From a virus: 42,089 bases of DNA. The notes beneath the pieces are model-generated. The model ran no database searches and had not been told where the DNA came from. It saw only the letters and a program-made list of their open reading frames with translations. Where the stretch lies: IMG/VR virus record IMGVR_UViG_3300045988_068238; one strand, given 5' to 3'. Below, piece by piece: positions 22,434-38,585 of the stretch (its first letter is position 1; every line of letters starts with the position of its first letter). The translations under genes and the position numbers were made by a program.

Positions 22434-22577
22434 ATGGCAGTATTCAAAAGTTATCTAAGGAAGCTTGCAAGGGATTTGAAAGACCTGAAAGCGGCGCTGA
22501 AAGAAAAGGATTATGAAAAGGCTGAAAAGCTGCTTGATAATCTAATTGCTGACACGCAAGCGGATATCGAAGATTAA
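22434..22577 (+). CDS. 47-aa helical protein, stand-alone paralogue of the RHH protein C-terminal domain
   Basis: MAVFKSYLRKLARDLKDLKAALKEKDYEKAEKLLDNLIADTQADIED. Lies downstream of the TATAAT promoter. Below the ORF-track threshold. Confidence 0.5.
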   Translation: MAVFKSYLRKLARDLKDLKAALKEKDYEKAEKLLDNLIADTQADIED

Positions 22578-22582
22578 CTGCG

Positions 22583-22608
22583 AAGGGACGGTGCAAACCG
22601 TCCCTTTT
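22583..22608 (+). terminator. Rho-independent terminator
   Basis: AAGGGACGG-TGCAAA-CCGTCCCTT followed by TT. Confidence 0.65.
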
Positions 22609-22674
22609 CCTTGTCAAAACAGCCAGCTTTTGACCGTCTGAAAAGTGCAAAACGCTGATTATTTGTGTTGGATA

Positions 22675-22703
22675 TTGTCTTTCGCTGTATGGCGGCGTAA
22701 AAT
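22675..22703 (+). promoter_or_regulatory. Promoter TTGTCT-17-TAAAAT for the zinc-ribbon gene
   Basis: TTGTCT at 22675-22680 and TAAAAT at 22698-22703. RBS GAAAGGAG lies downstream. Confidence 0.5.
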
Positions 22704-22736
22704 GTAGTCACTTTTTGAAAGGAGAAGGGCACGAAT

Positions 22737-22985
22737 ATGTTTTGTCCAAAATGCGGAAGCGACAATGTAACTGTTTCTATTCAGCAAGCATCCACCAAGA
22801 CCAAGAAGCACGGGAATAGCTTTGGCGGGCACATGAACAACATGGCAAGGGGATTGACTGCTGCTTGCACGCTCGGTATGTCAAACCTTGTATGGAAGAA
22901 ATCCAAAGGCGGTGAAAAAACAGTTATAACAAACGAAAAAGTTTGCTTGTGCCAAAACTGCGGTAACTCGTGGATAATTGAATAA
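22737..22985 (+). CDS. Zinc-ribbon protein (82 aa), moron
   Basis: CPKCGS near the N-terminus and CQNCGN near the C-terminus. Has its own promoter and RBS. Orientation is opposite to the structural genes. Confidence 0.65.
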   Translation: MFCPKCGSDNVTVSIQQASTKTKKHGNSFGGHMNNMARGLTAACTLGMSNLVWKKSKGGEKTVITNEKVCLCQNCGNSWIIE

Positions 22986-23018
22986 AAAAAGAAGGCAAGG
23001 GATTAACCATTGCCTTCT
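22984..23018 (-). terminator. Terminator at the end of the late operon
   Basis: Stem GAAGGCAA/TTGCCTTC (22991-22998 and 23010-23017), followed on the minus strand by seven T. Confidence 0.65.
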
Positions 23019-23260
23019 CCATGTTCCAGATCGTCTATTCTGTGGTTTGCTACTTTGATTTTTTCTTTGATGATTTCCTGTTCTTCTTCAATGCGGTATG
23101 TTCGTTCCACAAGGTTGTTGTGCTTGTTCACACGTTCTTCAAGCCGTTCCAGACGATATGCAAGCAGCGCCTTTGTTTTGCTGTTGCTAAGATATGCGCC
23201 GGTCAGTGTGCCGACAAGTGCCAAAAATGCAACAATAATGGTAGATACGTCAAAGCCCAT
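23003..23260 (-). CDS. Membrane-anchored coiled-coil protein (possibly XhlA-like lysis accessory)
   Basis: N-terminal TM helix IIVAFLALVGTLTGAYL, then LERLEERVNKHNNLVERTYRIEEEQEIIKEKIK. Last gene after the tail fibre. Confidence 0.5.
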   Translation of the reverse strand: MGFDVSTIIVAFLALVGTLTGAYLSNSKTKALLAYRLERLEERVNKHNNLVERTYRIEEEQEIIKEKIKVANHRIDDLEHGEGNG

Positions 23261-23284
23261 ACGATTTACCTTCTTTATTAAGAT

Positions 23285-25315
23285 TTAGATTTGCCACGGC
23301 GCAGTGATGTTCCAAGTAAGACTAAATTCAATCGCCGCACCCGCTGTGTAAGCTGAACCTGTCCTTACATAGACCATTCCTGTTTTTCTGACCCAGCAGA
23401 CACAAGTCCCCGTTGCCCCCTGAACGCCAACCGTTGCAACGGAATTCAAAGGGCATTGTTCAACCGGTATCGTTGCCACCAGCGTTCCTGTCGCAGCAGC
23501 TATATCCTTATCAATATGAAGATTGATGTACATTGTCGCAATATCGCCGCTTCTGGACGCTGATGCCCGTGATATAGTAACGCCCGTTTCAGGCGTGATG
23601 GTGATTTTCTTTGTTCCGCCGCAGATCATCTGCCAGCCGCCCCAAGCGCCCGTATAATAGCACCGCTGCCAGACATACTGGTCATCCTTATCACATTGCG
23701 TGAACCGCTGGACACGCTGCAAGCCGTCCCCGCCAAGCAGCACTTCCACAAAGGCCGTTGCCGTAGTGGACAGGGAAGGCTTGTTCAGGACTGTTGGACT
23801 TGAAGTCGTGTTCGCCACACAGTAATAGCCCGGTTCCAGCAGTGTGTCCATGTCCGTTTCAGGCGGTAGCATGATCGGACTGTTTACCAGTTCCCCGTGC
23901 CATGACTTCATAGGCAAAGCAAATTCCACGCCTTCTGTCAACTCCGACACCTTGCCGAAGGCAAGTGCCTTCCCGTTTGCATTGAAATCCAGCAGCGTGA
24001 ACGCAGTGGGTATTTCTATAATGCTTCTGACTGTTGTGAAATGGTCTGTAACAGACAAGCGCACATCATAGCTGTTGTCAAGCCCGAAGATGCCGATTGC
24101 GCTGATAATGTTGTCTTTCAAAGCATAAACAGCGCCGCTTGTCAAGGTTGTCCAAGCAGTAGCACTTTGCAGCTTGTATTCCAGCGTGTAAGCTGCCGTG
24201 TTCTTATCTGACACGGGCGCTATACTGAAGTTGATCGCGGCGTTAAGATAGGCACCTTCATAGTTTTCCGTGCCGTCTGCAAGGCATCTGAAGCCCTGAA
24301 AGCTTATGATCTTGGGCGCAGAATAGGAAAGCACAGTCCAAGTCTTTGTTGTGCTGGCAGACCGTCCACGGCTATCAGTGACAGTTATCTTTGCTGATAC
24401 CGTCCCACTTCCCGTAATCACTCCGGCTGTCGGCGTAGCGCCTGAATAGCTCTTGCCCTCAAAAACTGTTTTATAGGTCTTGATGGTAGAGCTTAAAGCC
24501 CCTGCCGCCGTGATCGTGAACTTAGGCTTTGACTTGCTCTGCACCATGTTCCCGAAGAAGCTGTAAACCGCCGTGACAGTATCAGCAACAGCAACGCTTG
24601 AAATGGCCGGGACAACACTTGCCGGGACTGTGATCGTGAATTTTTTCGACACCGCCGACCCTATCTTTGTGCTGCCGGAATAGGTCGTTACTGTGACCTT
24701 TGCTGTGCCGCTTGTGGCGTTCGGTATGGCGTTTAGCCAGCTTTGGGGTATTGTATAGCTCGTAGATGTTCCAACGCCTGTGACGCTCTTAGAATAGCTT
24801 CCAAAGCTGAATACAACCGTGTGCGTAAAGCCGCTTGACTTGCGGTCGATGTTTACCATGACCGCATTGCTTCCAGTGACAGATACGGAAGAAGTCACGC
24901 TGCTGATGCTGGATGCTCGTGCTATGGCGTTGAATGTTCCGCTGCCGGACGCTGTGACATTGCCGTAATAAGTGCCGGACAGGGTAACATTTATCCCACA
25001 AGTGGCAGAGAACGAACAGCTTTTCGTGCCGTCCGAATTGTGGGGAATTGTGACCGTTTTTGTGAACAGCGTTTTGGTTTGATTGCCGGACAGGGCAGCG
25101 GTGAAATTGAAGGTGTATTTTGTGCCGTTGATGGTCAAGCTTCCGCTTTTGCTTGCGCTGGAATTGATAGTGTAGCTACTGCCGGTTGACACAAGCTGCA
25201 CCTTTGCCGTTACGCTGGAAGTGTTGTTAGCTACGGACTGCGAACCCACCGACCACGCTATTTGCAACCGATAGCCCGTCCGGATAGCCTGTTGAATGGT
25301 TCCTGATGATGCCAT
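23285..25315 (-). CDS. Tail fibre / receptor-binding protein (DUF859-like N-terminus, knob-like C-terminus)
   Basis: Start moved to ATG 25315 (TGATATG junction). GYRLQIAWSVGSQSVANNTSSVTAKVQL...GSLTINGTKYTF resembles siphovirus DUF859. DMDTLLEPGYYCV...QRFTQ...WQRCYYTGAWGGW resembles the pyocin-knob motif. Confidence 0.7.
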   Translation of the reverse strand: MASSGTIQQAIRTGYRLQIAWSVGSQSVANNTSSVTAKVQLVSTGSSYTINSSASKSGSLTINGTKYTFNFTAALSGNQTKTLFTKTVTIPHNSDGTKSCSFSATCGINVTLSGTYYGNVTASGSGTFNAIARASSISSVTSSVSVTGSNAVMVNIDRKSSGFTHTVVFSFGSYSKSVTGVGTSTSYTIPQSWLNAIPNATSGTAKVTVTTYSGSTKIGSAVSKKFTITVPASVVPAISSVAVADTVTAVYSFFGNMVQSKSKPKFTITAAGALSSTIKTYKTVFEGKSYSGATPTAGVITGSGTVSAKITVTDSRGRSASTTKTWTVLSYSAPKIISFQGFRCLADGTENYEGAYLNAAINFSIAPVSDKNTAAYTLEYKLQSATAWTTLTSGAVYALKDNIISAIGIFGLDNSYDVRLSVTDHFTTVRSIIEIPTAFTLLDFNANGKALAFGKVSELTEGVEFALPMKSWHGELVNSPIMLPPETDMDTLLEPGYYCVANTTSSPTVLNKPSLSTTATAFVEVLLGGDGLQRVQRFTQCDKDDQYVWQRCYYTGAWGGWQMICGGTKKITITPETGVTISRASASRSGDIATMYINLHIDKDIAAATGTLVATIPVEQCPLNSVATVGVQGATGTCVCWVRKTGMVYVRTGSAYTAGAAIEFSLTWNITAPWQI

Positions 25316-25316
25316 A

Positions 25317-25889
25317 TCAATCCACCGCCTTTTTGAAACTGATATTGCCGTTTTCCCTCGGCATGAAAGCGAACTTTCCAAGCTGTAGGCTATGCAATAT
25401 CTGTGTGTCGGTTACATACAGCTTCCGGTTGTTGAAGTATGCCACTTCTGAGCCGTCCTGAAGGAAGCTGATTCTGTCATTGGCTATCTGCAATTCAAGC
25501 TCGTTGCCCACTTCACCCAGCAGAATCTTTCCGTCTACAAATCTAATAAATTTGCGGATTTCTTCAAATTCTGCGTCAGTATTTGCAACTACACTATCAA
25601 TATTTGCGCGGAAAGATGTGAATTCAATCTCAAAACTGTTCTTTGTCTGCTCAATCTCCGTGCTGACAGCGGAAACAAGCGCGTCCGTATCTTCCTTCAA
25701 GTAGTAGTTTTCGGCCACAGTTGACTTGATGTTTTCCTCGGACACTTGCAAAGATGCAAGCAGATTTTGTTCCACGTTGTTAACGGCCGTAGAAGCCGCT
25801 TTGGACGCATTTTCTATTTGCAGTATATTCACCCTGCGCACCGGAAACGCCAGCCAGCGCGCCGGAAATACCCTCAAACACGCCGCCAA
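25317..25889 (-). CDS. C-terminal part of the tail-associated (Tal-like) minor structural protein, in a different frame from 25780-26925
   Basis: Coiled-coil-like NILQIENASKAASTAVNNVEQNLL... The only start is a TTG directly after an in-frame TGA. Overlaps the upstream ORF by 110 nt. Confidence 0.55.
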   Translation of the reverse strand: MAACLRVFPARWLAFPVRRVNILQIENASKAASTAVNNVEQNLLASLQVSEENIKSTVAENYYLKEDTDALVSAVSTEIEQTKNSFEIEFTSFRANIDSVVANTDAEFEEIRKFIRFVDGKILLGEVGNELELQIANDRISFLQDGSEVAYFNNRKLYVTDTQILHSLQLGKFAFMPRENGNISFKKAVD

Positions 25890-26925
25890 GCGTCAGTTTG
25901 TTTGCGCCCGGCTCCAACAGCTTCAAAGACAGCTTTGTAACAAGGAAGTTTTGGTCTATGCCGTGCGGATTGCTTTCCACTTTGACGTATGTCCCAAGGT
26001 GGAAGCTACTGAAAGAAGCGTCCACGGTTGCCAAATCTGCCGCCGTCAATTCGATGGTTTCCGGCTGGTTGACAAGATCAGAAAGATGTGCATTGGCCTT
26101 TGTCAGCAAGTTTGTCGCTTCGGTAACATCATCCCATGTATGCGTGGCAAAAATCAGGCCGTACTTGTCGGCGGCTTCTTCATCAATGATGTAATCAAGG
26201 CCATCATTAACAGAAGCAACGGTCAGGCGGTTGTCCGTGTCTTTGCCTTCATCATCCTTTATCTTTGCGCCCAATGGAATCAAAGCAGTTGCAATGTCAG
26301 CGCCCTTTCTAATCCGCTTCAGGTCAAGCAGATTCTTCCCGAACGTGATTTTTTGCGGCGAAAGAAGCGTGAAGTCCTGCAAGTAGTCAATGTAGTTGAT
26401 ATAACCTTCATGACGTATGACGATATACCCGCCCAGCAGATCAACCAGCTTCTTTTGCAGTTCCGTCCACGTATCGACATATTCAATATTCGACCGGACG
26501 ATATAATCATTCGGGTCAGTGACCGTGACATTTCCGACAGTAAACCACTTTGCTTCTTCCACCTGCGCATTGTGGTTATCAATCAGCAGGTTAAGAAACC
26601 CGGCAACCGTCCCGGAATAGTCGTATGGTCTTTGTACACTGTCCAGCAGAAAGGCAAGTTCACCTTCGCAAGTGACGTGCTTTTCGTTATGGAATCCGAT
26701 TTCGTCATCCAGCACGCGGCCACGGAAAAGCAAATAGTCATCCTGATAAACCGTGATGATGGATTTCAGCTTTTTGATGAAGCTGTAATGTGGATGATCG
26801 GGATAAACTGTGAATAAGACGCTGCCGGTTTTATTCAGCTCCAATTCAACGGAAGGGCTAAAAATTTTCAGGCTTTCCAGATTGCTGTTATACAGCGTCA
26901 GGCCGTCGCAATATACTCTGTACAT
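25780..26925 (-). CDS. Tail-associated protein, N-terminal Prophage_tail (Tal/minor structural) domain
   Basis: MYRVYCDGLTLYNSNLESLKIFSPSVELELNKTGSVLFTVYPDHPHY...YLLFRGRVLD is the typical N-terminal region of the phage minor structural protein. Confidence 0.75.
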   Translation of the reverse strand: MYRVYCDGLTLYNSNLESLKIFSPSVELELNKTGSVLFTVYPDHPHYSFIKKLKSIITVYQDDYLLFRGRVLDDEIGFHNEKHVTCEGELAFLLDSVQRPYDYSGTVAGFLNLLIDNHNAQVEEAKWFTVGNVTVTDPNDYIVRSNIEYVDTWTELQKKLVDLLGGYIVIRHEGYINYIDYLQDFTLLSPQKITFGKNLLDLKRIRKGADIATALIPLGAKIKDDEGKDTDNRLTVASVNDGLDYIIDEEAADKYGLIFATHTWDDVTEATNLLTKANAHLSDLVNQPETIELTAADLATVDASFSSFHLGTYVKVESNPHGIDQNFLVTKLSLKLLEPGANKLTLGGVFEGISGALAGVSGAQGEYTANRKCVQSGFYGR

Positions 26926-26926
26926 A

Positions 26927-27574
26927 TCACAGCCCCGCTTCCTGATAAGAAAACGTGATGCTTCCTGTACCCGTGACAGAAACAGTGTTTTCCCCGGCCT
27001 TTAATTCCAGTTCCGGCAGTGTATAGCTCCCGCTCCCCAAGTCCCACACGCTGTATGCGTTATAGACAATGTGCAGGGCGCTATCAGCTTCAATCAACAC
27101 TTCCGGCACAACGCGCTTGCGGAGATTGGCCAAAGTAATTGCCGTTTCGCCATTTACGGCTTGCGTGACAACAGTTTTTGCCGCCTTGTACTTGTACGGC
27201 TCACAATCCGCTTCTATGTTGATTTTGCCGATGCCCTTGGACGATGTAAAGCTTGAAACGTCAAGCCGCCCCACATAGAAAAAATGCGAATCATCGTCAA
27301 GGATGACCCGCATTTTTTTACCATGTAAAGCATTTTTAACAGCCGAAAATGTGGCAGGGAATTCCGACTGCGAACCAATTGTTGAAAACTGAAATTTGTG
27401 TATCACATTCCCATACTTAGGTTCACCGAAATAGTCAGTCAAATCCAGTGACCCATCAGCCCCCGCAACATCAATCTTCATGGTTTTCACCGTTGGCGCA
27501 CCGATTTCTTTCGACGCAAGAATCAGGTGAAGATCATCATACGAATGATAATTGCCGAATGTGATTCCGTTCAT
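26927..27574 (-). CDS. Distal tail protein (Dit, Sipho_tail), copy 2
   Basis: ITFGNYHSYDDLHLILASKEIGAPTVKTMKIDVAGADGSLDLTDYFGEPKYGN is the canonical Dit N-terminus. Confidence 0.8.
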   Translation of the reverse strand: MNGITFGNYHSYDDLHLILASKEIGAPTVKTMKIDVAGADGSLDLTDYFGEPKYGNVIHKFQFSTIGSQSEFPATFSAVKNALHGKKMRVILDDDSHFFYVGRLDVSSFTSSKGIGKINIEADCEPYKYKAAKTVVTQAVNGETAITLANLRKRVVPEVLIEADSALHIVYNAYSVWDLGSGSYTLPELELKAGENTVSVTGTGSITFSYQEAGL

Positions 27575-27592
27575 TTTTAACCCCCTATAAAA

Positions 27593-27679
27593 TTATGCCG
27601 TCCGCTGCCAAACGTACACAGACAAGTACGGCGGCATATTGTTATGCGCGACGCGCCCGTCTGCGATTGTGATTGCCAT
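27593..27679 (-). CDS. 28-aa ORF resembling the C-terminal end of a tail-collar (MdpB-type) domain, a possible gene remnant
   Basis: MAITIADGRVAHNNMPPYLSVYVWQRTA. HNNM(P/Q)PYL is the conserved end of collar-domain fibre proteins. GGGAGG RBS plus 7 nt. Confidence 0.3.
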   Translation of the reverse strand: MAITIADGRVAHNNMPPYLSVYVWQRTA

Positions 27680-27693
27680 ATGATGGCCTCCCG

Positions 27694-28350
27694 TCACAGC
27701 GCGCGGATGCGGTCTGCGAAGTCACAGGCCATGATCTTACCTGACTGACCGCTCTTGGTACGGATTGCGTTTGCGATGTCGACAAACAGCTCGCCAAGAT
27801 TATCAATGTACTGCACAGTCGGTGCATCCGAAAACGTCGTGATATGCTTATCCAGCCACTCCTTGCTCGGCTCCAAACCAGCGCCAAAGGCGGCGGTCAG
27901 GTCGATCAGCATACAACTTGTGAACCAAAACGGCGTGTTCTTTCCGTTATTGTTGTTGTAATCGAAACGGCAAGGGTAGCTGCCATCGCTAAAACTTGTG
28001 CGCTCAAATACCGCCGACAGGCGCACCCACGTTTCCGCCGCAACATTAAAAGCCATGTTTTGCGCTGCACAAGGCTCGGCAACTGGCCAGTACCAATCGC
28101 AAGTGCCCTGCGTGGCTGCCGCAAAGCGCACCTTGAAGCTGATGTAATATTTATGCGATGCAATCAGTTTGTGCGACGCCGACGTCAGCGTTACCTCGCC
28201 CGCGCCGGAAGGGATGATCTTGATACTGGACGCGGCCCCATCGCCCGGCGTGATGCTCGACAACTGCCACGAGCAGTTTCCACGCGTGGCCGGAAACCAA
28301 CCTTTCCCGCTATTCGCTACTTGATTTGTAAGTGTCACATTAGTAGGCAT
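27694..28350 (-). CDS. Tail fibre tip / putative carbohydrate-binding (jelly-roll-like) protein
   Basis: 218 aa, follows the fibre gene, RBS AAGGTGG. GC-rich. No confident family assignment. Confidence 0.5.
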   Translation of the reverse strand: MPTNVTLTNQVANSGKGWFPATRGNCSWQLSSITPGDGAASSIKIIPSGAGEVTLTSASHKLIASHKYYISFKVRFAAATQGTCDWYWPVAEPCAAQNMAFNVAAETWVRLSAVFERTSFSDGSYPCRFDYNNNNGKNTPFWFTSCMLIDLTAAFGAGLEPSKEWLDKHITTFSDAPTVQYIDNLGELFVDIANAIRTKSGQSGKIMACDFADRIRAL

Positions 28351-28364
28351 ATCGTTTCACCACC

Positions 28365-29900
28365 TTAATAGCTGCTGTTGATTGCTGCTACGATTGCAGT
28401 ATCAACGTAAGACTTGATCGCGTTGGCAATTCCAAGATCGCCAACCAGCTCGGTGGGCGTGCGATAGTACACCCAGCCGCTGTCGTCCAGCACGGCAATC
28501 TTGCCCGGTGTACGCCCAAGATCGCTAGCGGCAGTGGACTGTAGCCATGTACCGCAAAAATACTTGCCGTAGACGTTGCCGGTAAACGTGCCGCCAGACT
28601 TGCTCATTTTGGCGTCAAGTGCAGTCTTGTCCGCCTTTGCATCCAACGCGGTCTTGTCGGCCTTGGCGTCAATCGCTGCCTTGACAGCTTTATTTTGCAC
28701 CGGGTTGGCGCTGGTGCTGGATAGCGTCGCGTCAACGGTGATGTTACTGCCAGCAGCCACCTTGTCATCGATGTACTGCTTGATTACCTTGTTCTGCACA
28801 GGGTTGACCGATGACCCGGACATGGCACTGTCAATGGTGGTCTTGTTTGCGCCCCTCTCAATGTCGTCCAACTTGGTTTTATCCGCCTTGGACATCAGGC
28901 CGTTGGCGGACGTGCTCGCCACCGCGGTACCAGCTTTCTTGTCCAGTGCGGCCTTGACAACCTTGTTCTGAACGGGGTTGGTAGATGTGGCCGACAGTGC
29001 ATTATCCACGTCCACGCCGCCGCTGGCGGCAAGTTCGGCAACTTTTGCCTTGACGTAGGCCACGTTTGCCGCGCAGTCAGTCTGCGCGTCTGTCGGGGTT
29101 TCAATGCCGGACACACATACCGGTACATTTTCTGGCCCAGCGTCAAGCGCAAGCGTGTAGTCATTGCTTTTTTCGCTTGGCGTAATATTTACAACACTTA
29201 CCCCGTCATCATGCCCGATTGCCTGCAACATTACAGCGCCATCGATAAACGCGTACTTTTGGCTGACCGCCCCGATATTTTTGCACGCGCGGGATTTCTG
29301 ATCGGATGTCAGTTCTTGCGTTTCATCGTACCGAACAGAACCTTCTCCTGTCGGGATGTCTATGGTCACATCTTTTGAACCGCTAAACTGCGCCTTGGCA
29401 GCGCCAGTGAATTTCAGGATGCCGGGAGTGCTTGCAAGCAAATCGTATTCGGACTTTCCCCATATTGTACCCGCATATGTACCGCCAGCCGATGCAGTAT
29501 ACGCCAGTCTTGTATTGGGTTCCCAAAATCCATTGTCCTTTGTGGTTTGGAAAATATACTTGGTGCTCCCATCACCCGGCAACTGCACTCGATGCAACGG
29601 GATGATTGTATCCACAACCTTGATCGCGCAGGTGGTTGGAACACCTTTCAGTTTTTCATGCAACTGTGCAGGTGTGATGTCAAATGTCTCTCCATCCGTG
29701 GATGTAGCGACAATGTCGTACATACTGTCCAATTTTTCCTTATCGGCAGCGGACATCAGGCCATTTGCACTGGCCGTAGCAACGGTGGTATCTGCCTTAG
29801 TATCCAGCGCCGTCTTGTCCGCTTTTTTATCCAGCGCGGCCTTGGCAAGCGCCGCATTCTTTGCCGCTGCAATTGCACCGACATACTTTTCGTCACTCAT
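28365..29900 (-). CDS. Tail fibre protein with repeated NGLMS..DK.KLD and S.NPVQNK motifs
   Basis: Start moved to ATG 29900 (GAAAGGAG RBS). Motifs: ANGLMSAADKEKLD, ANGLMSKADKTKLD, three copies of S(T/S/V)NPVQNK and the tandem AKADKTALD. Confidence 0.75.
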   Translation of the reverse strand: MSDEKYVGAIAAAKNAALAKAALDKKADKTALDTKADTTVATASANGLMSAADKEKLDSMYDIVATSTDGETFDITPAQLHEKLKGVPTTCAIKVVDTIIPLHRVQLPGDGSTKYIFQTTKDNGFWEPNTRLAYTASAGGTYAGTIWGKSEYDLLASTPGILKFTGAAKAQFSGSKDVTIDIPTGEGSVRYDETQELTSDQKSRACKNIGAVSQKYAFIDGAVMLQAIGHDDGVSVVNITPSEKSNDYTLALDAGPENVPVCVSGIETPTDAQTDCAANVAYVKAKVAELAASGGVDVDNALSATSTNPVQNKVVKAALDKKAGTAVASTSANGLMSKADKTKLDDIERGANKTTIDSAMSGSSVNPVQNKVIKQYIDDKVAAGSNITVDATLSSTSANPVQNKAVKAAIDAKADKTALDAKADKTALDAKMSKSGGTFTGNVYGKYFCGTWLQSTAASDLGRTPGKIAVLDDSGWVYYRTPTELVGDLGIANAIKSYVDTAIVAAINSSY

Positions 29901-29913
29901 ACCGTTACTCCTT

Positions 29914-31170
29914 TCAATTGGCATCCCAGATGGCTTGCATCTCGTCTGCGGTCATGGCAACAAGGCTGCCGCCGCTAGATAGACCGTCGAGCTTCTTTTT
30001 GTCAGCAGCGGACATCAGGCCATTTTTAGACTGTGTTGCAACGTCCGTGTTTGCTTTAGCGTTCAATGCTGTGGTTACAATCTTGTTCTGCACCGGGTTT
30101 GTCGATGTCAGAGACAGCGCCGCGTCTACGTTGATAAATGTTCCACCGCCGCCACCGCCGCCGCTACTGCCGCCGCTTGACCCGCTGCTTGATGTTCCGT
30201 TCTTCCCGATCGCGGTTTCGTAAGATACGGACATATAGTCATTTCGGATGCTTACGATTTTTTTGGTAATAGGTACGGAAACGGAAATGCCGGTGACGGT
30301 ATCAACCGCGCCGACCACATCGCCGACATCAAAGGCATATTCCGCTTCGTTCAAGCTGACTGATAAATTGTCTTGATTTTGCAGCTCTGCCAATCTGGAC
30401 GCACCAGCTTCAATCAGCTTTTGCGCACTTTCCGCGCTCGGGTAGTCATATACCGCTGCATATTCATCCGCGCCTGTCAGCGTCTGCGTTTGGCTTATGC
30501 TGCCGCTTGCATCGGCGTATAGATGCACAACCGTTCTGTCCTTTAGTTCACCTTGACCCAAGCAAATCAGATGATTGACTTTTTTCGATGTCGTTTTAAC
30601 TTGGAAAGACATTGCATCAGACGAAACGGAACCGTCTTTTGTATGATCTGCGATAGGCGCGGCAGACAAAATTACCTTTTCCCCGTCAAACGACAAAACT
30701 AGTTTTCCGCCCACGGATTTCAGCATTTGCATGATTCCGTCATAGCCGGTGACATATCGCGGCATTTTATAGTTGCTGATTTCAAGGCCTGAAGCATAGA
30801 TATTAACAGTGAAGATTGATGTTAAACCCATCCTTGTAATCAGCGAATTAAGGACACCGTTTGCTTCGTTGTTTAACGTTAAGTAGTCCTGACCTGCGTC
30901 GGGACAAATCACCTTGGAATTAAGAATTCCGTGCCATGTCCTACCGGTATATGTCACTTCTCCGGTTTTGGTGTCAGAAGTTACCGCATCAATTACGCCG
31001 CCATACTCTGTGCCGATAATGTACACATAGTACCCGGCTTCGCAGCAATGATTATTTGCGTCAACCTTTATCTCAAAATCGTTTTCATCCGAACCGAATG
31101 CAAGGTCTAGATCATACGCTTTCATTACGCCAATAGCTTGCATTGACGAATTTGTATAAATCAAATCCAT
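29914..31170 (-). CDS. Siphovirus Gp37-like (ReqiPepy6-type) baseplate/Tal-like protein with a Gly-rich linker and fibre motif
   Basis: MDLIYTNSSMQAIGVMKAYDLDLAFGSDENDFEI... resembles Sipho_Gp37. The C-terminus carries SSGSSGGSSGGGGGGGT, then TSTNPVQNK and KNGLMSAADKKKLD. Confidence 0.6.
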   Translation of the reverse strand: MDLIYTNSSMQAIGVMKAYDLDLAFGSDENDFEIKVDANNHCCEAGYYVYIIGTEYGGVIDAVTSDTKTGEVTYTGRTWHGILNSKVICPDAGQDYLTLNNEANGVLNSLITRMGLTSIFTVNIYASGLEISNYKMPRYVTGYDGIMQMLKSVGGKLVLSFDGEKVILSAAPIADHTKDGSVSSDAMSFQVKTTSKKVNHLICLGQGELKDRTVVHLYADASGSISQTQTLTGADEYAAVYDYPSAESAQKLIEAGASRLAELQNQDNLSVSLNEAEYAFDVGDVVGAVDTVTGISVSVPITKKIVSIRNDYMSVSYETAIGKNGTSSSGSSGGSSGGGGGGGTFINVDAALSLTSTNPVQNKIVTTALNAKANTDVATQSKNGLMSAADKKKLDGLSSGGSLVAMTADEMQAIWDAN

Positions 31171-31982
31171 TTCGGTTCGCTCCTTTCATCGTAAAGGATT
31201 AACGACCACTGGAAAGATTCACTTCTGCCTATTGTGCTATTACCGCTGGGAATTTTCTTGAAAGTATCATCTACCAACACGCCTTTTATTACGCCGCCTA
31301 CCATTGTACCGGCTGAACCGCTTATATAAGAAACATAGCGTTGGCTAAAAGCATTATTCTTTTTGCCATTTTTAAGTACGTAAACTTCTTTCGTAATCGA
31401 ATCAATAACCAATTGTGTGTTAGCTTCAAGCCCATAACTAAGGCCATGAATTGCGCCACCAATAGATATCGTTGTTTCGGTTGTTGACCCAAAGATTGTA
31501 AGCCTGAAATTCGCTTCATGGTTCAGCGGATTGACTATACCTGTAAGCTCATTAGTAGTGGAATCGCGCACATACGTTGCTTCCACTTCCTTGACCCAAA
31601 ACGGTTCGTCTGATAGCAGTTCCAAAGAAACCAGCATCGTTTTCATAGAATCCAAGTACTTAGACTTCGATGACGCTGTTACATAGCACTTCAGATAGTA
31701 CCCGTTGACGAAAATTTTACCCGGCTGTTTTGCAAGGACATCTTTTTCAAAGCATTCAATCAAATCATTCCGCTTTTGAATTCCGGCAGCTTCTGTCGCA
31801 CACGCAATCGCGAGATCAATTTTTTTGCTGATAACGTTGCGCTTGAAGGAAGTGATTTTCCCGCCGCGCTCGGTGTAGTTCCACGCATAATCATGAAGAT
31901 CGGATGATTTCACATAGATGCCGTTTTCGGAAAAGTTAATTTCCTCGCCCAAATGATTCTGATATTTTACTGTTTCAAGCAT
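31161..31982 (-). CDS. Distal tail protein-like (Dit), copy 1
   Basis: 273 aa, immediately after a tape-measure gene (TAATG overlap). The IFVNGYYLKCYV segment is typical of phage tail family proteins. Confidence 0.55.
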   Translation of the reverse strand: MLETVKYQNHLGEEINFSENGIYVKSSDLHDYAWNYTERGGKITSFKRNVISKKIDLAIACATEAAGIQKRNDLIECFEKDVLAKQPGKIFVNGYYLKCYVTASSKSKYLDSMKTMLVSLELLSDEPFWVKEVEATYVRDSTTNELTGIVNPLNHEANFRLTIFGSTTETTISIGGAIHGLSYGLEANTQLVIDSITKEVYVLKNGKKNNAFSQRYVSYISGSAGTMVGGVIKGVLVDDTFKKIPSGNSTIGRSESFQWSLILYDERSEPKWI

Positions 31983-33646
31983 TACGTAACACCCCTAACA
32001 AGACGCCCGAATTCACGGCTGTTGATGCTGATCGTCTGCGAAGATTTCAGGCAGTCAAGAATCTGTCGCAGAAGATATTCTGTTTCTTCGCTGTTTCGCA
32101 GCGTCTGCGCTTCCCGTTTCGGGACAACCATTTCGCCCTTGTGCAGCTCGGCGATGTAGCCATCAAAAGGCACATAGTCAAGACCGGACGCATGGGAACC
32201 GTTAACACCTGCAACTGCACCTTTGGCGCTGCCATTTACGCTAACATTAGCTGACAAGTCGCCAAACAGATCATTCCAGATTCCCTTAAACCATCCAGTT
32301 AGCTTTTTCCATGCTCCGGCGATGCCGTCAATGATGGAATCAACCACTTTCGCGCCAGCCTTAACGATTTCACCAAGGCTGTTTGCAATGCCCTCCGCGA
32401 TTTTTCCCACAAGCTTTAGGCCAGCAGCAAGAAGATTCGGCGCATTACTAATCAGCGCCCTTAGTAGCCCCGTCACAAGTTCAGCCGCAGCCGCAATCAG
32501 CTTGGGCAAGGCATCAATAAGCCCGGAAACGATGATCGCGACAAGCATTATTGCCGTTTCGACAAGGCTTTCCGGGTCAGATGATATTGATTCGATCAAG
32601 GTAATGACCATATCAACGCCGTACTGAATGATTTGCGGGAGCATCTGAACAAGCCCTTGCAGGATAGCGCCAACCATTGAAATACCAGACTGCACAAGTT
32701 CCGGCAGAACGGTTGTTACAAGTCCCGGTATTGCCGCAGCAACAACAGGCGCAAGCCTTTCAGCAAGCGAACCGATTCCCGTGATGATTTTCCCAAGTCT
32801 CGGCAGGATATTTTCTGCTGCCGTGCCAGTGCTATCAACGAAATTGTTAATCAGCTTGTCCAAATCCTGCGAATCATCGCCGATGCCCGTAAGCAAATTT
32901 GTCCATGCAGATTTCATCGCGGAAAGGCTTCCCTGAATCGTGGTTGATGCTTCCTTCGCGGTCGTTCCAGTGATGCCCATTTCCGTCTGCACGTCGTGAA
33001 TTGCGCTGACAATATCGGCATAGCTGTCAATGCTGTAATTTGTAAGATTGCCCTGCGCAGCATTCAAGGCATTTGCATCGTCAATAAGGCGCTGCATTTC
33101 TTCCTTCGTGCCGCCATAGCCAAGCTTCAGGTTATCCAGCATTGTGTAATTCTGCTTTGCAAATCCCTGATAAGCATTCTGGATGTCACCCATTGCAGTG
33201 CCCATCTTGTTTGCATTATCAGCCATATCAGTGATTGCAAGATCAGCTTGCTTCGCCGCTGCTTCCGTATCACCGCCCAAGCTTTGCAACAGCGCAGCAG
33301 AAAAGCTTGTGACGGTTTCCATGTAGTCATTGGCTGACAAACCGGCAGTCTTATAGGCGTTGTTTGCGTACTGCTTGACAACATCAGCGCTGTCCTTGAA
33401 TAGCGTTTCAACGCCGCCGACAAGCTGTTCATACTCGGCGTATTCTTCAAGTGATTTTTTTGTCAGCGCTCCGACGGCCGTTGCAGCAGCGACAATAGCA
33501 GCAGCACCAAGTTTCGCGGCCGTAGCAAGACCTTTCCCGATCTTGCCGGATAATTTTTCGGCTTTGCTGGAAGATTCGTCAATGTCACCGTTGAATTGGT
33601 CTTTGCCTTTCAAAGCAATGGTTCCAAAAATCTTAAACAATTCCAA
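31982..33646 (-). CDS. Tape measure protein, copy 2 (554 aa)
   Basis: TTG start. MELFKIFGTIALKG N-terminus, long Ala/Leu/Ile helical repeats, and C-terminal HASGLDYVPFDGYIAELHKGEMVVP typical of TMP ends. Confidence 0.75.
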   Translation of the reverse strand: MELFKIFGTIALKGKDQFNGDIDESSSKAEKLSGKIGKGLATAAKLGAAAIVAAATAVGALTKKSLEEYAEYEQLVGGVETLFKDSADVVKQYANNAYKTAGLSANDYMETVTSFSAALLQSLGGDTEAAAKQADLAITDMADNANKMGTAMGDIQNAYQGFAKQNYTMLDNLKLGYGGTKEEMQRLIDDANALNAAQGNLTNYSIDSYADIVSAIHDVQTEMGITGTTAKEASTTIQGSLSAMKSAWTNLLTGIGDDSQDLDKLINNFVDSTGTAAENILPRLGKIITGIGSLAERLAPVVAAAIPGLVTTVLPELVQSGISMVGAILQGLVQMLPQIIQYGVDMVITLIESISSDPESLVETAIMLVAIIVSGLIDALPKLIAAAAELVTGLLRALISNAPNLLAAGLKLVGKIAEGIANSLGEIVKAGAKVVDSIIDGIAGAWKKLTGWFKGIWNDLFGDLSANVSVNGSAKGAVAGVNGSHASGLDYVPFDGYIAELHKGEMVVPKREAQTLRNSEETEYLLRQILDCLKSSQTISINSREFGRLVRGVT

Positions 33647-33681
33647 TGGTTATCAGCCCCTTTCCCATTGGTTTTGATATT

Positions 33682-33707
33682 AAAAAAAGGCCATCAAAAA
33701 GATGGTC
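33682..33707 (-). terminator. Weak terminator-like hairpin between the two tape-measure genes
   Basis: Minus strand reads GACCATC-TTTTT-GATGGCC (one mismatch) followed by seven T. The stem overlaps the TAG stop of TMP1. Confidence 0.35.
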
Positions 33708-35443
33708 TAACGTGTATTCCCTCGCTGCGCATGGGCAAGCCGATTGGATAGCCCCATATCCAGCGCGGGAAGTAGATTCCCCACAAGCGCACCGGAATCA
33801 AGCTCAATGGACTTCGGGATGACCCGTGACAGAAAGTCCATCAGCATCCGGTTTTGGTCGATAAGCGTGTTTATAATGCCGTCGTTCTCGCTTTTTACAG
33901 CGTCCTTGACATATCCCTGTAATAGTGATATGGGCGCAATGGCTTCTTTTCCAGCTTCACCGACACCCTGATAACCCATGCGTGTATTGAAAATCGTTGG
34001 CTTGTCAAATATACCGCCCTCTGCGTTCCACTTAACATTAAAATTCGGCAACTTACCCTTTCCGGCGATTCCGAAAGGCGCTTTGCCGCCTGACACGCTG
34101 ATTTTAGGCACTTTCAGGCCGCTGAATATCTTGCCAATTTTCAAAGGGAAGAACCCCTTGATTTTGTCAACGACACCTTTGACCTTATCCCTTGCAGCGT
34201 CCATCTTGTCTGTGATAGCGCTTTTGATGCTCTCAAAGGTAGCCTTAACCTTTGCGACAGCATCTTTCAGATCACCGAACTTGTTTTTTATCCATTTCAC
34301 GGCTGAACCTGTCGCAGACTTGATTTTCTCCCACATTTTCAGCCAGAAATTTCGGAAGCCCTCGTTGTTCTTCCAAAGGTACAGGAATGCCGCCACAAGC
34401 CCCGCTATCAGGCTTACAACAAACCCGATGGGATTAGCCCTTAGCGCTGCATTAAACAGCAGAATAGCCGCCCTAACGCCTTTTATGGCCTTTGTAGCGG
34501 CAGACATTATAGTGCCCCATTTCAATACCAGAAGAAAAGCGCCAACGCTGACGGTCGCGCCGATAATAACCGCCGCCCAATTATGGATAGCCTGTTTGTT
34601 TTGCTGTATCCATTTTTTCAGGTCTTTGACCTTCTTGATAAATGCTTCAAGCTTTGGAACAGCAGAAGTCACCATTTCGGCAACCTTGGTTTTGATAGCG
34701 GTCAAGATCGGTTCCCCGACCCGGCCAAGCTCCGCAAAGGCGCTTGTTAGCTTCTCCTGCGCTCGGTTCGCATCCATGACATCCTTGTTGGTTTTCTTGT
34801 ACTGTTCGGATGCCTTGGAATATGTGCCGTTCAGCGTTTCCATTATCAGCTTTTGCCGCTCCTGCTCTGTGGAGCACTTTGCAAGCTTTTCATTAAACGC
34901 ATCTTCTGAAATGCCAGCCCAGTTCAAAGCATCCGCAAGCGGGCCAGTTACTTCGCCGACTTTCGCCGTCTCGTTGGCCGCTTCGGTAAGCCCTTCGATG
35001 GGCAGAGAATCGCCGAACGTTGTGAAAACGCCGGTACAGATGTCTGTCCAAGTCTGTAAATCCTTTTCGTTATCGGTCATCACCGCAAGATGGTTTGCAG
35101 CTTCAACAGATACATCCGTATCGCCAAGCACCGCCTGTAAATCCTGATAGGTCTTTTTGGCCGCATCCGTGGAATGGCCGTTTGTTACAAATGCGGTGTC
35201 GAGCTTTCCCATTTCAGTCCGGTATTCCCGCGTTCCTTCAATGGCGGCAATCCACGCGCCGCCCAGCGCTGCGCCCGTTGTGACAATGCCTTTTGCAACG
35301 GTTCCGGCCGCTTTGCCGATTTTCTTGAAGGATTCCGAAGTTTTGCCGCTGGATTTATCGGCTTTTGCCGCTGTATCGTCTATGGCCTGATTTGCCTTTT
35401 CGTTATCAACGGCAATAGTGCCAAGTATTTTGAAAAGTTCCAT
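33707..35443 (-). CDS. Tape measure protein, copy 1 (578 aa)
   Basis: MELFKILGTIAVDN N-terminus, internal TM-like helices, and C-terminal GVGEAGKEAIAPISLL motif typical of TMPs. Confidence 0.8.
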   Translation of the reverse strand: MELFKILGTIAVDNEKANQAIDDTAAKADKSSGKTSESFKKIGKAAGTVAKGIVTTGAALGGAWIAAIEGTREYRTEMGKLDTAFVTNGHSTDAAKKTYQDLQAVLGDTDVSVEAANHLAVMTDNEKDLQTWTDICTGVFTTFGDSLPIEGLTEAANETAKVGEVTGPLADALNWAGISEDAFNEKLAKCSTEQERQKLIMETLNGTYSKASEQYKKTNKDVMDANRAQEKLTSAFAELGRVGEPILTAIKTKVAEMVTSAVPKLEAFIKKVKDLKKWIQQNKQAIHNWAAVIIGATVSVGAFLLVLKWGTIMSAATKAIKGVRAAILLFNAALRANPIGFVVSLIAGLVAAFLYLWKNNEGFRNFWLKMWEKIKSATGSAVKWIKNKFGDLKDAVAKVKATFESIKSAITDKMDAARDKVKGVVDKIKGFFPLKIGKIFSGLKVPKISVSGGKAPFGIAGKGKLPNFNVKWNAEGGIFDKPTIFNTRMGYQGVGEAGKEAIAPISLLQGYVKDAVKSENDGIINTLIDQNRMLMDFLSRVIPKSIELDSGALVGNLLPALDMGLSNRLAHAQRGNTR

Positions 35444-35506
35444 AAGGATAACCCCTTTATGCCCGAATGGTCAGCCCATCAGCCATCAGGAACTTTTATC
35501 AGATTC

Positions 35507-36234
35507 TTATTCTTCTGCAAACAAATCGTCGCAGATCGCTTGAATGTCTTTATCCGTCAGATCGGCATCCGTGCCTTGGCGTTGCCCGTTGCTGCCGATT
35601 CTAAGGACTTTCTTTTTCCAGTCAAGGAACGAATCTTCCGAATAGCTGTGGCAGTACATAATCCATAGCTTCATTTCTTCGTCCTTGTCCATTTCCGCTT
35701 TTTGGCGGTCGTATTCCGATTGAAGGAATCCCGTTACAAACTCCCCAAATCGCCCACGGTTAATATAGGAATTCATCAAGTCCATAGGACATGAATATCT
35801 GTGATATATCATGTCCATGAACTTGAATTCACCGATTAAAGCAATTTGGAAAGCGCCCTGAAAAAACTTGCATTCTTCGCGTCGGCAATGATGTCCCAGA
35901 TCATGCTGGGCGTAGTACCGAACGGCATTTCAGGGATTTCGTCAGCCGGGATGCCGGACAGGTCAGAAAGCAGCGGATAGATTTTATCAGGGATAGCGCT
36001 GACGTTTTTCAGCACGGACACAGCGATTTTGTAAACCACCATGCCGCCGATTTCGTCAACGGACTTTTCGCCGGTTGCAAGCTGCACAAACACATCCGCA
36101 AGGTCATCCGGAAGCGTAGCCGTGATGATATCCAGCATGGGATAAAAGTCTTTGTCCTTCAGGCTGCGCAGCTTATACGGCTTGACTTCTTCCGTTACTT
36201 CTTCAGTCATTTCAATGTTTTCCTTTTTGCTCAT
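35507..36234 (-). CDS. Tail assembly chaperone G-T fusion product (via -1 frameshift at 35860-35866)
   Basis: ORF 35507-35818 is in the -1 frame relative to 35836-36234. That frame stays open back through the slippery site. Confidence 0.7.
35836..36234 (-). CDS. Tail assembly chaperone (G-like)
   Basis: 132 aa acidic protein between the major tail and tape-measure genes. Confidence 0.8.
   Translation of the reverse strand: MSKKENIEMTEEVTEEVKPYKLRSLKDKDFYPMLDIITATLPDDLADVFVQLATGEKSVDEIGGMVVYKIAVSVLKNVSAIPDKIYPLLSDLSGIPADEIPEMPFGTTPSMIWDIIADAKNASFFRALSKLL
35860..35866 (-). promoter_or_regulatory. Programmed -1 ribosomal frameshift slippery heptamer T_TTT_TTC
   Basis: The mRNA reads AGT TTT TTC AGG in the G frame. 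This is an X_XXY_YYZ pattern 8 codons before the G stop. Confidence 0.7.
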
Positions 36235-36258
36235 CGGTTTTATGTTCCTTTCTGGCTG

Positions 36259-36882
36259 TTAAGATGCAGTTTCGATGATGTCCGTGGGCGTGGCGGCAGT
36301 CCAGCCGGTTGCCTTGCGGATAAAGATTGCATACGGCAGTTTGGTCGTGCCATATTCAATATCGGACTGGCAAGCAAAAGTGCCCTTAAACACGGAATTG
36401 TTTTTGTTCTTCGCTTCGGTCGTAAAGCCGGAAGTGCAAAGCGCGTGCTTAAAGATGATGATGATCGGTCTACCATCCGTAAACTTTCCGTAATAGCCGA
36501 AGCCCTCATAGAAGTGACCGGCGCGAAGCTCAGATGAAGTGACAACATCATAATTTTTGTCGGTAGATTCGGTGATCTTTCCGATAGCCAGATGCGCCGC
36601 CAGTTCTGCCGAAAGTTCAGCAATGGAAACTTCCATCTGTGCAGTCTCGCCAACCTTCTGCTGAAGCTCCTTGACTGCCACTGTTGCGCCGTCCAGCTCC
36701 GGCGCGAAGAACTCCGGCGTGATGGTCAGCGTGCCGCCGTCCTGCGTAGCGCCGATGATAGCCGCCTGAATTACTTCAGACGTAGGCGCAGCCGTTTCGC
36801 TGTACGTCACACCCTGAAAATATACGCCAGCCCCGAAAGGAATTTTTGCGGGAGTACCAGAAGTAATACCGCTGTTAGGCAT
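36259..36882 (-). CDS. Major tail protein
   Basis: 207 aa, in the position between the tail terminator and the chaperones. No sequence family recognised; called on position only. Confidence 0.75.
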   Translation of the reverse strand: MPNSGITSGTPAKIPFGAGVYFQGVTYSETAAPTSEVIQAAIIGATQDGGTLTITPEFFAPELDGATVAVKELQQKVGETAQMEVSIAELSAELAAHLAIGKITESTDKNYDVVTSSELRAGHFYEGFGYYGKFTDGRPIIIIFKHALCTSGFTTEAKNKNNSVFKGTFACQSDIEYGTTKLPYAIFIRKATGWTAATPTDIIETAS

Positions 36883-38037: not shown

Positions 38038-38585
38038 ACCCTCAACCCCTGTCCGAATCTCGCTTTCATGTAGGGCTTCAAAAAGCCCATCAGGGACTTC
38101 GGATATCCCATAATGGAATTATCCCCGTCCATATTGAAATAGGTCACAGAATGCCGGGAAATCGTTTCAGACGAAACACCAACCTTGTCGCGGTTGTTCA
38201 TTTCCCACTTCATCAGATTGGCGCAGCCCATCCGTACATCAGCCGGATAAACAACCTTCGTGACCACGATTCCGCTTTCATCGATCAAGTTTTCCATGAC
38301 CTTGACCGTGTTACCCGAAACGCTTTTTACCGTGACAAGGCAATCGGGCATAAGGTCAGATTCCGTGATTTGCAAAGTGTCACCAGCGCGGAAGGGAACC
38401 ACACCATTGCAAACAATGTCATGGTCTGGCATGGACACGGCAACCGCCCTGAAAGCCCGCTGCTGAAAGTTGTTATTTGTGTATGCCCGAATAAGCAGTT
38501 CAAGTGCCTGAAGCTTTGCTTCAAGCACCTGATCTACATCATCCGTTGTGACATACTGCCGAAGTTCGGCAACAGTCATAATCAT
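38034..38585 (-). CDS. Head-tail connector protein (gp6-like)
   Basis: VAELRQYVTTDDVDQVLEAKLQALELLIRAYTNN is typical of the gp6 connector family. Confidence 0.7.
   Translation of the reverse strand: MIMTVAELRQYVTTDDVDQVLEAKLQALELLIRAYTNNNFQQRAFRAVAVSMPDHDIVCNGVVPFRAGDTLQITESDLMPDCLVTVKSVSGNTVKVMENLIDESGIVVTKVVYPADVRMGCANLMKWEMNNRDKVGVSSETISRHSVTYFNMDGDNSIMGYPKSLMGFLKPYMKARFGQGLRV

Follow-up and report, generated by a model that had tools for sequence, protein, structure and literature searches.

Two tape measure genes and two nested tail tip gene sets in a clade of gut siphophages

Tape measure and tail tip genes of the window

We analyzed the tail module of a viral DNA sequence of 42,089 nucleotides, IMG/VR record IMGVR_UViG_3300045988_068238 (the whole stretch is called the window below), which encodes two tape measure proteins (TMPs) and two sets of tail tip genes, each containing a distal tail protein (Dit) and a hub protein. 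Tailed phages are usually taken to have a single tape measure and a single tail-tip initiator, and so one tail per genome. A preliminary description of the window had numbered the duplicated genes, and every open reading frame (ORF) that it listed was found at the coordinates it gave, on the minus strand. We use letters in place of its numbers. TMP1 becomes TMP-A and TMP2 becomes TMP-B; set A comprises Dit2, a Prophage_tail-type Tal and a DUF859 protein, and set B comprises Dit1, a Gp37-type hub, a fibre and a tip protein. System A is thus TMP1 with the second tip set, and system B is TMP2 with the first. Relatives were collected by scanning IMG/VR with the Gp37-like protein, Tal and TMP1, which gave 140 loci (L numbers below refer to these); after identical sequences had been removed, 42 distinct loci carried a TMP-A homologue together with Dit-A or Tal-A. 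The features of the module are as follows.

36259-36882, minus strand: tail tube protein, 207 aa
35836-36234, minus strand: tail assembly chaperone G-like ORF 1, 132 aa, between the tube gene and TMP-A
35507-35818, minus strand: chaperone-like ORF 2, 103 aa
33707-35443, minus strand: TMP-A (TMP1), 578 aa, with an alpha-type C-terminus, LDSGALVGNLLPALDMGLSNRLAHAQRGNTR
33682-33707, minus strand: hairpin (stem 33691-33705) immediately following the TMP-A stop codon, with a T tract to 33682
31982-33646, minus strand: TMP-B (TMP2), 554 aa, TTG start, with a beta-type C-terminus, INSREFGRLVRGVT
31161-31982, minus strand: Dit-B (Dit1), distal tail protein, 273 aa
29914-31170, minus strand: Tal-B, Gp37-type hub, 418 aa, with a fibre-repeat region at its C-terminus
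28365-29924, minus strand: set-B fibre, 519 aa, with repeated NPVQNK and GLMSxxDKxKLD motifs
27694-28350, minus strand: set-B distal (tip) protein, 218 aa, without a family match in Pfam or PHROG and always paired with the fibre
27593-27679, minus strand: relic ORF of 28 codons, MAITIADGRVAHNNMPPYLSVYVWQRTA followed by a stop
26927-27574, minus strand: Dit-A (Dit2), distal tail protein, 215 aa
25780-26925, minus strand: Tal-A N-terminal hub, 381 aa
25317-25775 (152 aa from a GTG at 25775) or to 25889 (190 aa from a TTG), minus strand: Tal-A C-terminal part, homologous to residues 367-536 of intact Tal
23285-25315 (likely ATG start at 25315; longest ORF from 25381, 698 aa), minus strand: DUF859 tail protein
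23003-23260, minus strand: holin-like small membrane protein, 85 aa, closing the module

The TMP-B stop codon overlaps the Dit-B start, Dit-B and its hub overlap at 31161-31170, and a single nucleotide separates Dit-A from Tal-A. The gap between the two TMP genes is 60 nt and holds the hairpin, and the gap between the tip protein and Dit-A is 119 nt.

Both TMPs were recognized by profile searches. TMP-A matched phrog_58 (2.9e-33) and phrog_991 (2.1e-31), and TMP-B matched phrog_6900 (2.3e-79) and phrog_991 (7.7e-63). TMP-A was also matched to the solved 80alpha TMP gp57 (2e-5) and TMP-B to the diffocin TMP CD1366 (5e-7), while Pfam TMP_3 scored TMP-A at only 18 bits, under its cut-off. Aligned to each other, the two proteins are colinear at 23% identity and their first ~35 residues, which include a common MELFK(I/L)xGTIA motif, are clearly alike. 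Each also has a hydrophobic middle and a C-terminal motif of its own, alpha type in TMP-A and beta type in TMP-B. These results bear out the earlier proposal of two TMP genes with paralogous N-termini, each ending in its own TMP motif. Since the matches cover the same interval of phrog_991 (228-914 for TMP-A and 244-886 for TMP-B), we regard the proteins as full-length paralogues rather than halves of one tape measure. The two also have an upstream context in common, the chaperone-like ORF at 35836-36234: TMP-A follows the chaperones in the window, where TMP-B stands just before Dit-B, and in the relative L001 TMP-B itself follows the chaperones. At ~0.15 nm of tail per TMP residue, tail lengths of ~87 nm for TMP-A and ~83 nm for TMP-B are predicted.

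Both Dit proteins matched the Dit family phrog_33, Dit-B at 2.5e-12 and Dit-A at 3.6e-15 over its residues 3-211; this profile match is the basis for the assignment of Dit-A. An AlphaFold2 model of Dit-B (predicted local distance difference test [pLDDT] 89, predicted template modelling score 0.81) has the two-domain Dit fold, with a tube-like N-terminal domain and a galectin-like C-terminal domain. In Foldseek searches this model matched the Dit of SPP1 (2x8k, 1.2e-8), NF5 (9m8o, 3.5e-9) and the Dit proteins of p2, TP901-1 and 80alpha (1e-7 to 1e-6); Bxb1 was also matched.

The Gp37-like protein encoded at 29914-31170 scored 31.3 bits against Sipho_Gp37 (PF14594, cut-off 26.2) and 2.8e-58 against phrog_538. 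Its AlphaFold2 model was poor (pLDDT 50), and the ten best Foldseek matches of that model, with TM-scores of 0.2-0.3, were all gp27-like hubs, among them Listeria gp18 (3gs9, 5e-7), MuSo2 (3cdd), 3d37, the monocin tip and NF5 Tal. A profile-profile alignment (hhalign) of the Gp37-like protein with the Tal-A family was colinear but weak (E 3.5e-4, probability 37%), and one homologue in NR carries the name prophage tail protein gp18. We consider it likely, from these model and profile comparisons, that the Gp37-like protein acts as a hub. The N-terminal part of Tal-A scored 65.5 bits against Prophage_tail (PF06605, cut-off 31.3), and the DUF859 protein, the probable receptor-binding protein of set A, matched PF05895 (4e-58) and phrog_372 (3.5e-105). 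Searches of PDB sequences with Dit-B, Dit-A, the Gp37-like protein and Tal-A returned nothing meaningful. The two complete tip sets named in the preliminary description are therefore upheld by two phrog_33 Dits, by Sipho_Gp37 and Prophage_tail hubs above their thresholds and by the DUF859 match. That description had also asked whether the products of 31161-31982 and 29914-31170 might be something other than Dit and Tal analogues; both behave as such analogues, the fold evidence for the hub being weak.

The set-B fibre and the 218-aa tip protein travel together in other phages (L009, L010 and L015). The tip protein is 81% identical in L001, and there the holin-like gene directly follows it. Repeat units of 42-54 nt at 28615-30126, encoding NPVQNK and GLMSxxDKxKLD, recur in the fibre gene and in the 3' portion of the Gp37-like gene, and recombination at them could allow fibres to be exchanged.

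The nested layout among relatives

All 42 distinct loci had the same gene order: TMP-A, a full-length TMP-B, one Dit, one hub-like protein, fibres, Dit-A and Tal-A, followed by the DUF859 protein. TMP-A adjoined Dit-A in none of the 42, the cassette between them measuring 4.4-8.7 kb. TMP-A in these loci is 575-589 aa long and 58-99% identical, Dit-A is 41-100% identical, and TMP-B ranges from ~538 to 928 aa. The hub of the cassette is of the Gp37 type in 22 loci and a distant Prophage_tail-type paralogue in the other 20, the latter being 32-41% identical to Tal-A in the loci compared. A Dit gene lies just upstream of the hub gene in nearly all mapped relatives, a few Dits being left unscored by our in-house profile.

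The samples that yielded these relatives came from human gut and water buffalo, and metagenome-assembled genomes (MAGs) place the hosts in the Oscillospirales; the layout was present in MAG contigs of Acutalibacteraceae and of water-buffalo Oscillospiraceae (TMP-A 58% identical). It was also found in GenBank MT835521.1, an unannotated sequence from human faeces, which was the one relative returned by a protein search of GenBank; a cultured phage with this layout was not found there. A near-identity DNA search of GenBank phages gave just a 520-bp partial match. The Streptococcus prophage Javan262 had been flagged as having two TMP features and was rejected as a fragmented TMP in a degraded prophage. 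The recurrence of one layout in dozens of independent metagenomic contigs indicates that it is neither chance nor misassembly.

Relatives with a single tip set delimit the two systems. Three stretches of L001 and L003 align with the window at 95-96% DNA identity: one running from the connector genes to the chaperones, one from the hairpin across TMP-B and Dit-B to the hub, and one beginning at the holin-like gene. The first chaperone-like ORF is 96-99% identical in the single-set loci L001-L003, homology to L001 stops near the 3' end of the second, at ~35531, and it resumes at the holin-like gene. The window and these relatives differ by two clean indels, one holding TMP-A (35530-33705) and the other holding the scar described below, Dit-A, Tal-A and the DUF859 protein (27691-23276). 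L006 is a shorter locus whose sequence begins at TMP2; from there it is 95% identical, and it shows the set-A indel as well. TMP-B is 94% identical to the sole TMP of L001 and L003, and the presence of system B alone in these phages shows that TMP-B and set B form a complete tail tip on the same backbone. TMP-A and set A are absent together although they lie 6 kb apart, so they are gained or lost as a pair. Two more distant loci, L066 and L073, have a single alpha-type TMP with a Dit and Tal of the set-A type directly after it. Each system is therefore self-sufficient in some phage.

We then compared the C-termini of the TMPs with the hubs beside them. The last ~30 residues fell into three classes: alpha, LDSGxLVGxLxPxxDxxL...RGNTR; beta, INNREFGRLVKGVT; and gamma, AAYFEQARWAI. 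Pairings were tallied over distinct TMPs from cassettes and from single-set phages, in both of which the TMP stands directly before a Dit-hub pair. Alpha was found with Prophage_tail-type hubs (18 TMPs), and beta and gamma with Gp37-type hubs (14 and 11). Three off-pattern alpha/Gp37 entries proved to be TMP-A proteins whose TMP-B had escaped the N-terminal search pattern. Of three TMPs that the motif patterns left unclassed, two fit the rule by eye and the third, TMP-B of L023, has a divergent C-terminus beside a Prophage_tail-type hub. Every TMP-A is alpha and every set A has the Prophage_tail type, including in the 22 loci where the hub of the adjacent set is of the Gp37 type. Since TMP-A invariably has the C-terminus that goes with the hub type of set A, it appears to match the distal set A, while TMP-B matches the adjacent set B. 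From these pairings we infer a C-terminal matching code between TMP and hub. Such a code is mechanistically reasonable, since solved siphophage tips include TMP in the Dit-Tal complex; TMP chains are present, for example, in the 80alpha tip model 6v8i. A mirror-tree correlation was weakly informative.

TMP-A of the window is 73-75% identical to that of relatives (e.g., L022-L043) whose tube proteins are only 37-41% and chaperones 25-35% identical to those of the window. This far better conservation of TMP-A suggests that the block from TMP-A through set A moves as a unit between head and tube backbones.

The weak hairpin that the preliminary description had noticed between the two TMP genes was located at 33691-33705 with a T tract. 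A hairpin with a T tract occurs no more than 70 nt after the TMP-A stop codon in 37 of the 42 distinct relatives. In about 35 of them a GC-rich hairpin of -9 to -21 kcal/mol starts 0-8 nt after the stop, its stem sequence varying by lineage, the hairpin of the window being a weak, degenerate version of this conserved element. L001 has the same hairpin, placed between its chaperones and its only TMP. Scanning for promoters and terminators gave sites no more frequent than in shuffled controls; the conservation of the hairpin emerged from the comparative analysis only. The element looks like a terminator or attenuator that probably dampens transcription into the low-copy tip genes, with TMP-A on its upstream side.

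The gap between TMP-A and TMP-B is widened to 370-620 nt in L047, L052, L056, L057, L059, L065 and MT835521.1. ORFs in this gap were listed for L052 and L056, and both have a small antisense gene there (4414-4872, minus strand, in L052; 2724-3230, minus strand, in L056) whose secreted product carries a signal peptide and, in both loci, the motif VPxGxYTVGxDIPxGxYTV. It looks like a moron inside the tail operon, beside the conserved hairpin.

The relic ORF at 27593-27679 lies in the 119-nt stretch before Dit-A and ends in HNNMPPYLSVYVWQRTA, the C-terminus of the last cassette fibre gene of relatives. This ending marks the relic as the scar of a recombination event that bounds cassette B on the right, in agreement with the block end that had been placed at 27593. 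Junctions before Dit-A are otherwise short, with a ribosome-binding site only, and the junction comparison revealed no conserved promoter or terminator there. No significant inverted repeats or invertible segment were found over 22500-36500, where both sets lie on the same strand, and a repeat search found no long direct repeats between the 5' ends of the TMP genes able to drive deletion.

Purifying selection acts on both TMPs and on both tip sets. The pairwise ratio of nonsynonymous to synonymous substitution rates (dN/dS) against five relatives was 0.06-0.35 for both TMPs, the Dits, the hubs, the fibres and the DUF859 protein. Tal-A is split in the window by a 2-nt deletion (GGTGAA[AT]TATACTG) between 25828 and 25827, relative to every relative. 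Intact Tal is a single 536-aa ORF in the relatives, and the window genome does not encode such an intact single polypeptide with a C-terminal extension. The exact truncated 381-aa product was present on at least nine other contigs of 20-50 kb, indicating a real lineage variant and not a read error, and a GTG 5 nt past the Tal stop codon restarts a C-terminal ORF of 152 aa. It had been suggested that the split Tal marks the set that is decaying; we find instead a private deletion of one lineage, with a restart codon, in a module where selection acts on both sets. A mirror image of this lesion was seen in L030/L133 (IMGVR_UViG_3300045988_082529), where frameshifts affect TMP-B (residues 128-152) and Dit-B (194-204) and system A is intact. 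Occasional lesions in either system, with the lineage persisting, fit redundancy and not one-way decay. Dit-B looked truncated in L032, L101, L106 and L137 as a result of how ORFs had been picked; tblastn showed it to be intact in each.

A proposed pair of tail-initiation complexes and competing explanations

We propose that the window encodes two independent tail-initiation complexes that share the tube protein, chaperones and head, giving two virion types with different receptor-binding tips, and that slot B is exchangeable; we put the probability of this reading at roughly 0.55. A single late operon would encode two partnerships, that of TMP-A and the distal set A and that of TMP-B and the adjacent set B. 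Chaperones, tube protein, tail-completion proteins and heads would be common to both, and each TMP would fit only its own hub through its final ~30 residues. Two kinds of tail would then be nucleated in the same cell, and the burst would mix two virion types, amounting to constitutive bet-hedging on host range. Slot B would be a swappable cassette, exchanged by recombination through the flanking TMP-A and Dit-A sequences or the conserved 3' end of the fibre gene. Expression and assembly of both systems, their separation into different particles and the role of the hairpin are the inferred steps of this scheme. A broader form of the proposal, which we hold tentatively and with somewhat less conviction, is that a whole clade of temperate Oscillospirales siphophages of the gut is constitutively dimorphic in tape measure, tip, receptor and often tail length, with system A as the anchor, slot B as a plug-in site for the cassettes of single-set phages and a short C-terminal code on each TMP, matched to its hub family, ensuring cognate assembly.

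Several points weigh against this proposal. Its support is comparative genomics throughout, and the assignment of the Gp37-like protein as a hub leans on a model of low confidence (pLDDT 50, TM-scores 0.2-0.3). Tal-A is mosaic, and its divergence follows that of TMP-A weakly (rho 0.39, vs. 0.70 for Dit-A and 0.50 for TMP-B). One locus, L077 (1802-14137 of IMGVR_UViG_3300045988_072179, 89 kb), is the sole exception seen: two Dit-hub sets, set A coming second, stand after a single TMP. The same contig holds a separate, normal locus with TMP-A and TMP-B (L135), and it may be chimeric or represent two joined phages. No TMP-A lineage with set A alone was found among the loci examined, and TMP-A and set A could depend in some way on cassette B. 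Lastly, parts of systems A and B may cross-assemble.

An alternative is that both systems work but just one of them is expressed or assembled at a time, depending on host, condition or cycle and chosen by the hairpin or a regulator, so that the phage switches tips and does not release mixed bursts. The position of the terminator-like hairpin, kept right after TMP-A in about 35 of the 42 loci while its sequence varies, would suit such a choice, as would the antisense secreted-protein gene that marks a transcription-unit boundary at the same junction in several relatives. However, set A comes after set B on the one strand, past junctions that offer a ribosome-binding site only and no conserved promoter or terminator before Dit-A, and nothing invertible was found in the module. 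Since the hairpin also precedes the only TMP of L001, it is better explained as a general attenuator for low-copy tip genes than as a switch. We consider this alternative unlikely.

A second possibility, to which we give slightly less weight, is one composite tip, a single elaborate baseplate with two receptor-binding systems that incorporates both Dit-hub sets and perhaps also both TMPs. This corresponds to the dual-receptor tip considered in the preliminary description, and it would account for the universal nesting in the clade and for the missing TMP-A lineage with set A alone. There is precedent for two receptor-binding proteins on one particle, and on one baseplate, in the lactococcal 936-group phages (PMC6315561). 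A composite tip would nevertheless leave a second full-length TMP, hub-matched at its C-terminus, without a role. Moreover, a tail has one distal end, where the hub trimer closes the tube (as in SPP1 and 80alpha). Set B alone suffices on the same backbone, tips of the set-A type suffice in L066 and L073, and either set tolerates lesions.

We also considered whether cassette B (or A) builds a non-infectious, tail-only particle, a weapon or decoy resembling an F-type tailocin, the other set making the infectious tail. Monocin does use homologous TMP, Dit and hub proteins, and its chains were among the structural and sequence matches. Yet a second set of tube, terminator and regulatory genes is lacking, L001 and L003, which appear to be complete phages, have no tail tip other than cassette B, and nothing would stop such tails from joining heads, which makes this explanation improbable.

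The first reading offered in the preliminary description was that a foreign block had been inserted between TMP1 and its original Dit2. The nested topology it described stands, given the covariation of TMP C-terminus and hub type, the joint absence of TMP1 and the second tip set in single-set relatives and the scar. A recent insertion or recombination accident that left one set redundant and decaying is quite another matter. The split Tal-A, the scar at 27593-27679 and the one contig with frameshifts in TMP-B and Dit-B are what it would lead one to expect, but all 42 distinct loci are nested, with TMP-A identity down to 58% and both human and ruminant sources; the other ORFs are intact and both sets are under selection; and the split Tal persists on at least nine contigs with its restart codon. 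We regard it as very improbable. Hardly credible at all is a split TMP (two halves of one tape measure) or an assembly artefact (a chimera of two phages): the tandem pair is indeed conserved clade-wide, as the preliminary description had allowed for, but the two proteins cover the same profile region, each with an N-terminal motif, hydrophobic middle and C-terminal motif, and the same architecture was assembled independently in many samples, the window itself being circular with an 89-bp terminal overlap.

All parts of the module belong to known families; what is unusual is the system-level design, in which the TMP, Dit and hub of the initiator are duplicated, nested and conserved. The tip modules of SPP1 (gp18/gp19.1/gp21), TP901-1 and 80alpha (gp57/gp58/gp59) have the same order of chaperones, TMP, Dit, Tal and fibre or receptor-binding protein, and the parts themselves are alike: the predicted Dit-B fold resembles those of SPP1, p2 and 80alpha, Tal-A is a Prophage_tail protein and TMP-A matches the 80alpha TMP. 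These canonical modules have one TMP, one Dit and one Tal, whereas the window has a nested pair of each, and across the clade 4.4-8.7 kb separates the first TMP from the partners predicted for it. Mu (G segment, Gin) and P1 (C segment, Cin) swap fibre genes by site-specific inversion on one baseplate with one TMP. There, too, one genome gives two virion types of differing host range, and constant and variable adsorption parts lie adjacent; for the window this outcome is a prediction. In contrast to Mu and P1, the whole initiator (TMP, Dit and hub) is duplicated on the same strand, and neither inverted repeats across 22500-36500 nor, in a scan of 10 large ORFs, an invertase of the Gin/Cin type was found.

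K1-5 and SP6 have dual tailspikes. In these phages, as in the 936-group phages, two receptor-binding systems are encoded in one structural operon, presumably for a wider host range; both binders sit on a single baseplate with one TMP, Dit and Tal, unlike the two TMPs, two Dits and two hubs seen here. F-type tailocins (monocin and the F-pyocins) have homologous TMP, Dit, hub and fibre genes, and the chains of the monocin tip were among the best matches. They differ from the arrangement in the window in having their own tube and regulatory genes and no head genes, while the second tip set of the window has no tube gene of its own and lies inside a complete phage. A literature search found no description of two tape measures with two Dit/Tal sets, of two tail lengths or of dual tail modules; its coverage was incomplete, so this is absence of evidence only. 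Papers that it did return for two tape measures were rejected, as they concern chaperones or alignments.

The clade thus conserves, under selection, two tape measures and two tip initiators where the standard view has one of each. If both are assembled, this would be a new way of hedging host range, the whole initiation complex being duplicated rather than fibres switched or added, and the pairing of TMP C-terminus and hub would provide a natural experiment on the encoding of assembly specificity. It would also offer a blueprint for engineered phages with two orthogonal tips or exchangeable tip cassettes. Host prediction for gut phages would be affected, as one genome might have two receptor specificities. 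If the proposal is true, one phage should have two tail lengths and two tip shapes, for example in members with a TMP-A of 579 aa and a TMP-B of 750-930 aa.

Genome context and neighbouring genes

The window closes as a circle through an exact 89-bp direct repeat at its termini (1-89 is identical to 42001-42089), indicating a genome of ~42,000 bp that appears complete. Besides the tail module it encodes a large terminase, an SPP1-type portal and a Gp13-like capsid protein. A further gene lies on the strand opposite to the tail module:

20016-21590, plus strand: large serine recombinase, 524 aa, with Resolvase, Recombinase and Zn_ribbon_recom domains

It was the sole recombinase in a scan that covered 10 large ORFs of the window. 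It is probably the integrase, which points to a temperate siphophage as the probable source of the window.

Several other genes outside the tail module drew our attention. A lysin gene with Amidase_2 and PG_binding_1 domains (40760-41791, minus strand) lies just upstream of the scaffold and capsid genes and far from the holin-like gene at 23003-23260, an odd location for an endolysin. In the head module, a 778-aa protein (1296-3632, minus strand) has a Mu F-like minor head domain fused to a C-terminal ADP-ribosyltransferase exotoxin domain (PF03496, 1.4e-11), and the gene next to it (156-1010, minus strand) encodes an ADP-ribosylglycohydrolase (PF03747, 1.6e-63). Together they look like a possible toxin carried in by the virion and paired with its own reversing enzyme. 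A small head-module protein of 103 aa (38582-38893, minus strand) has a PEPEPEPEPEPETEPEPETEP repeat and a basic tail.

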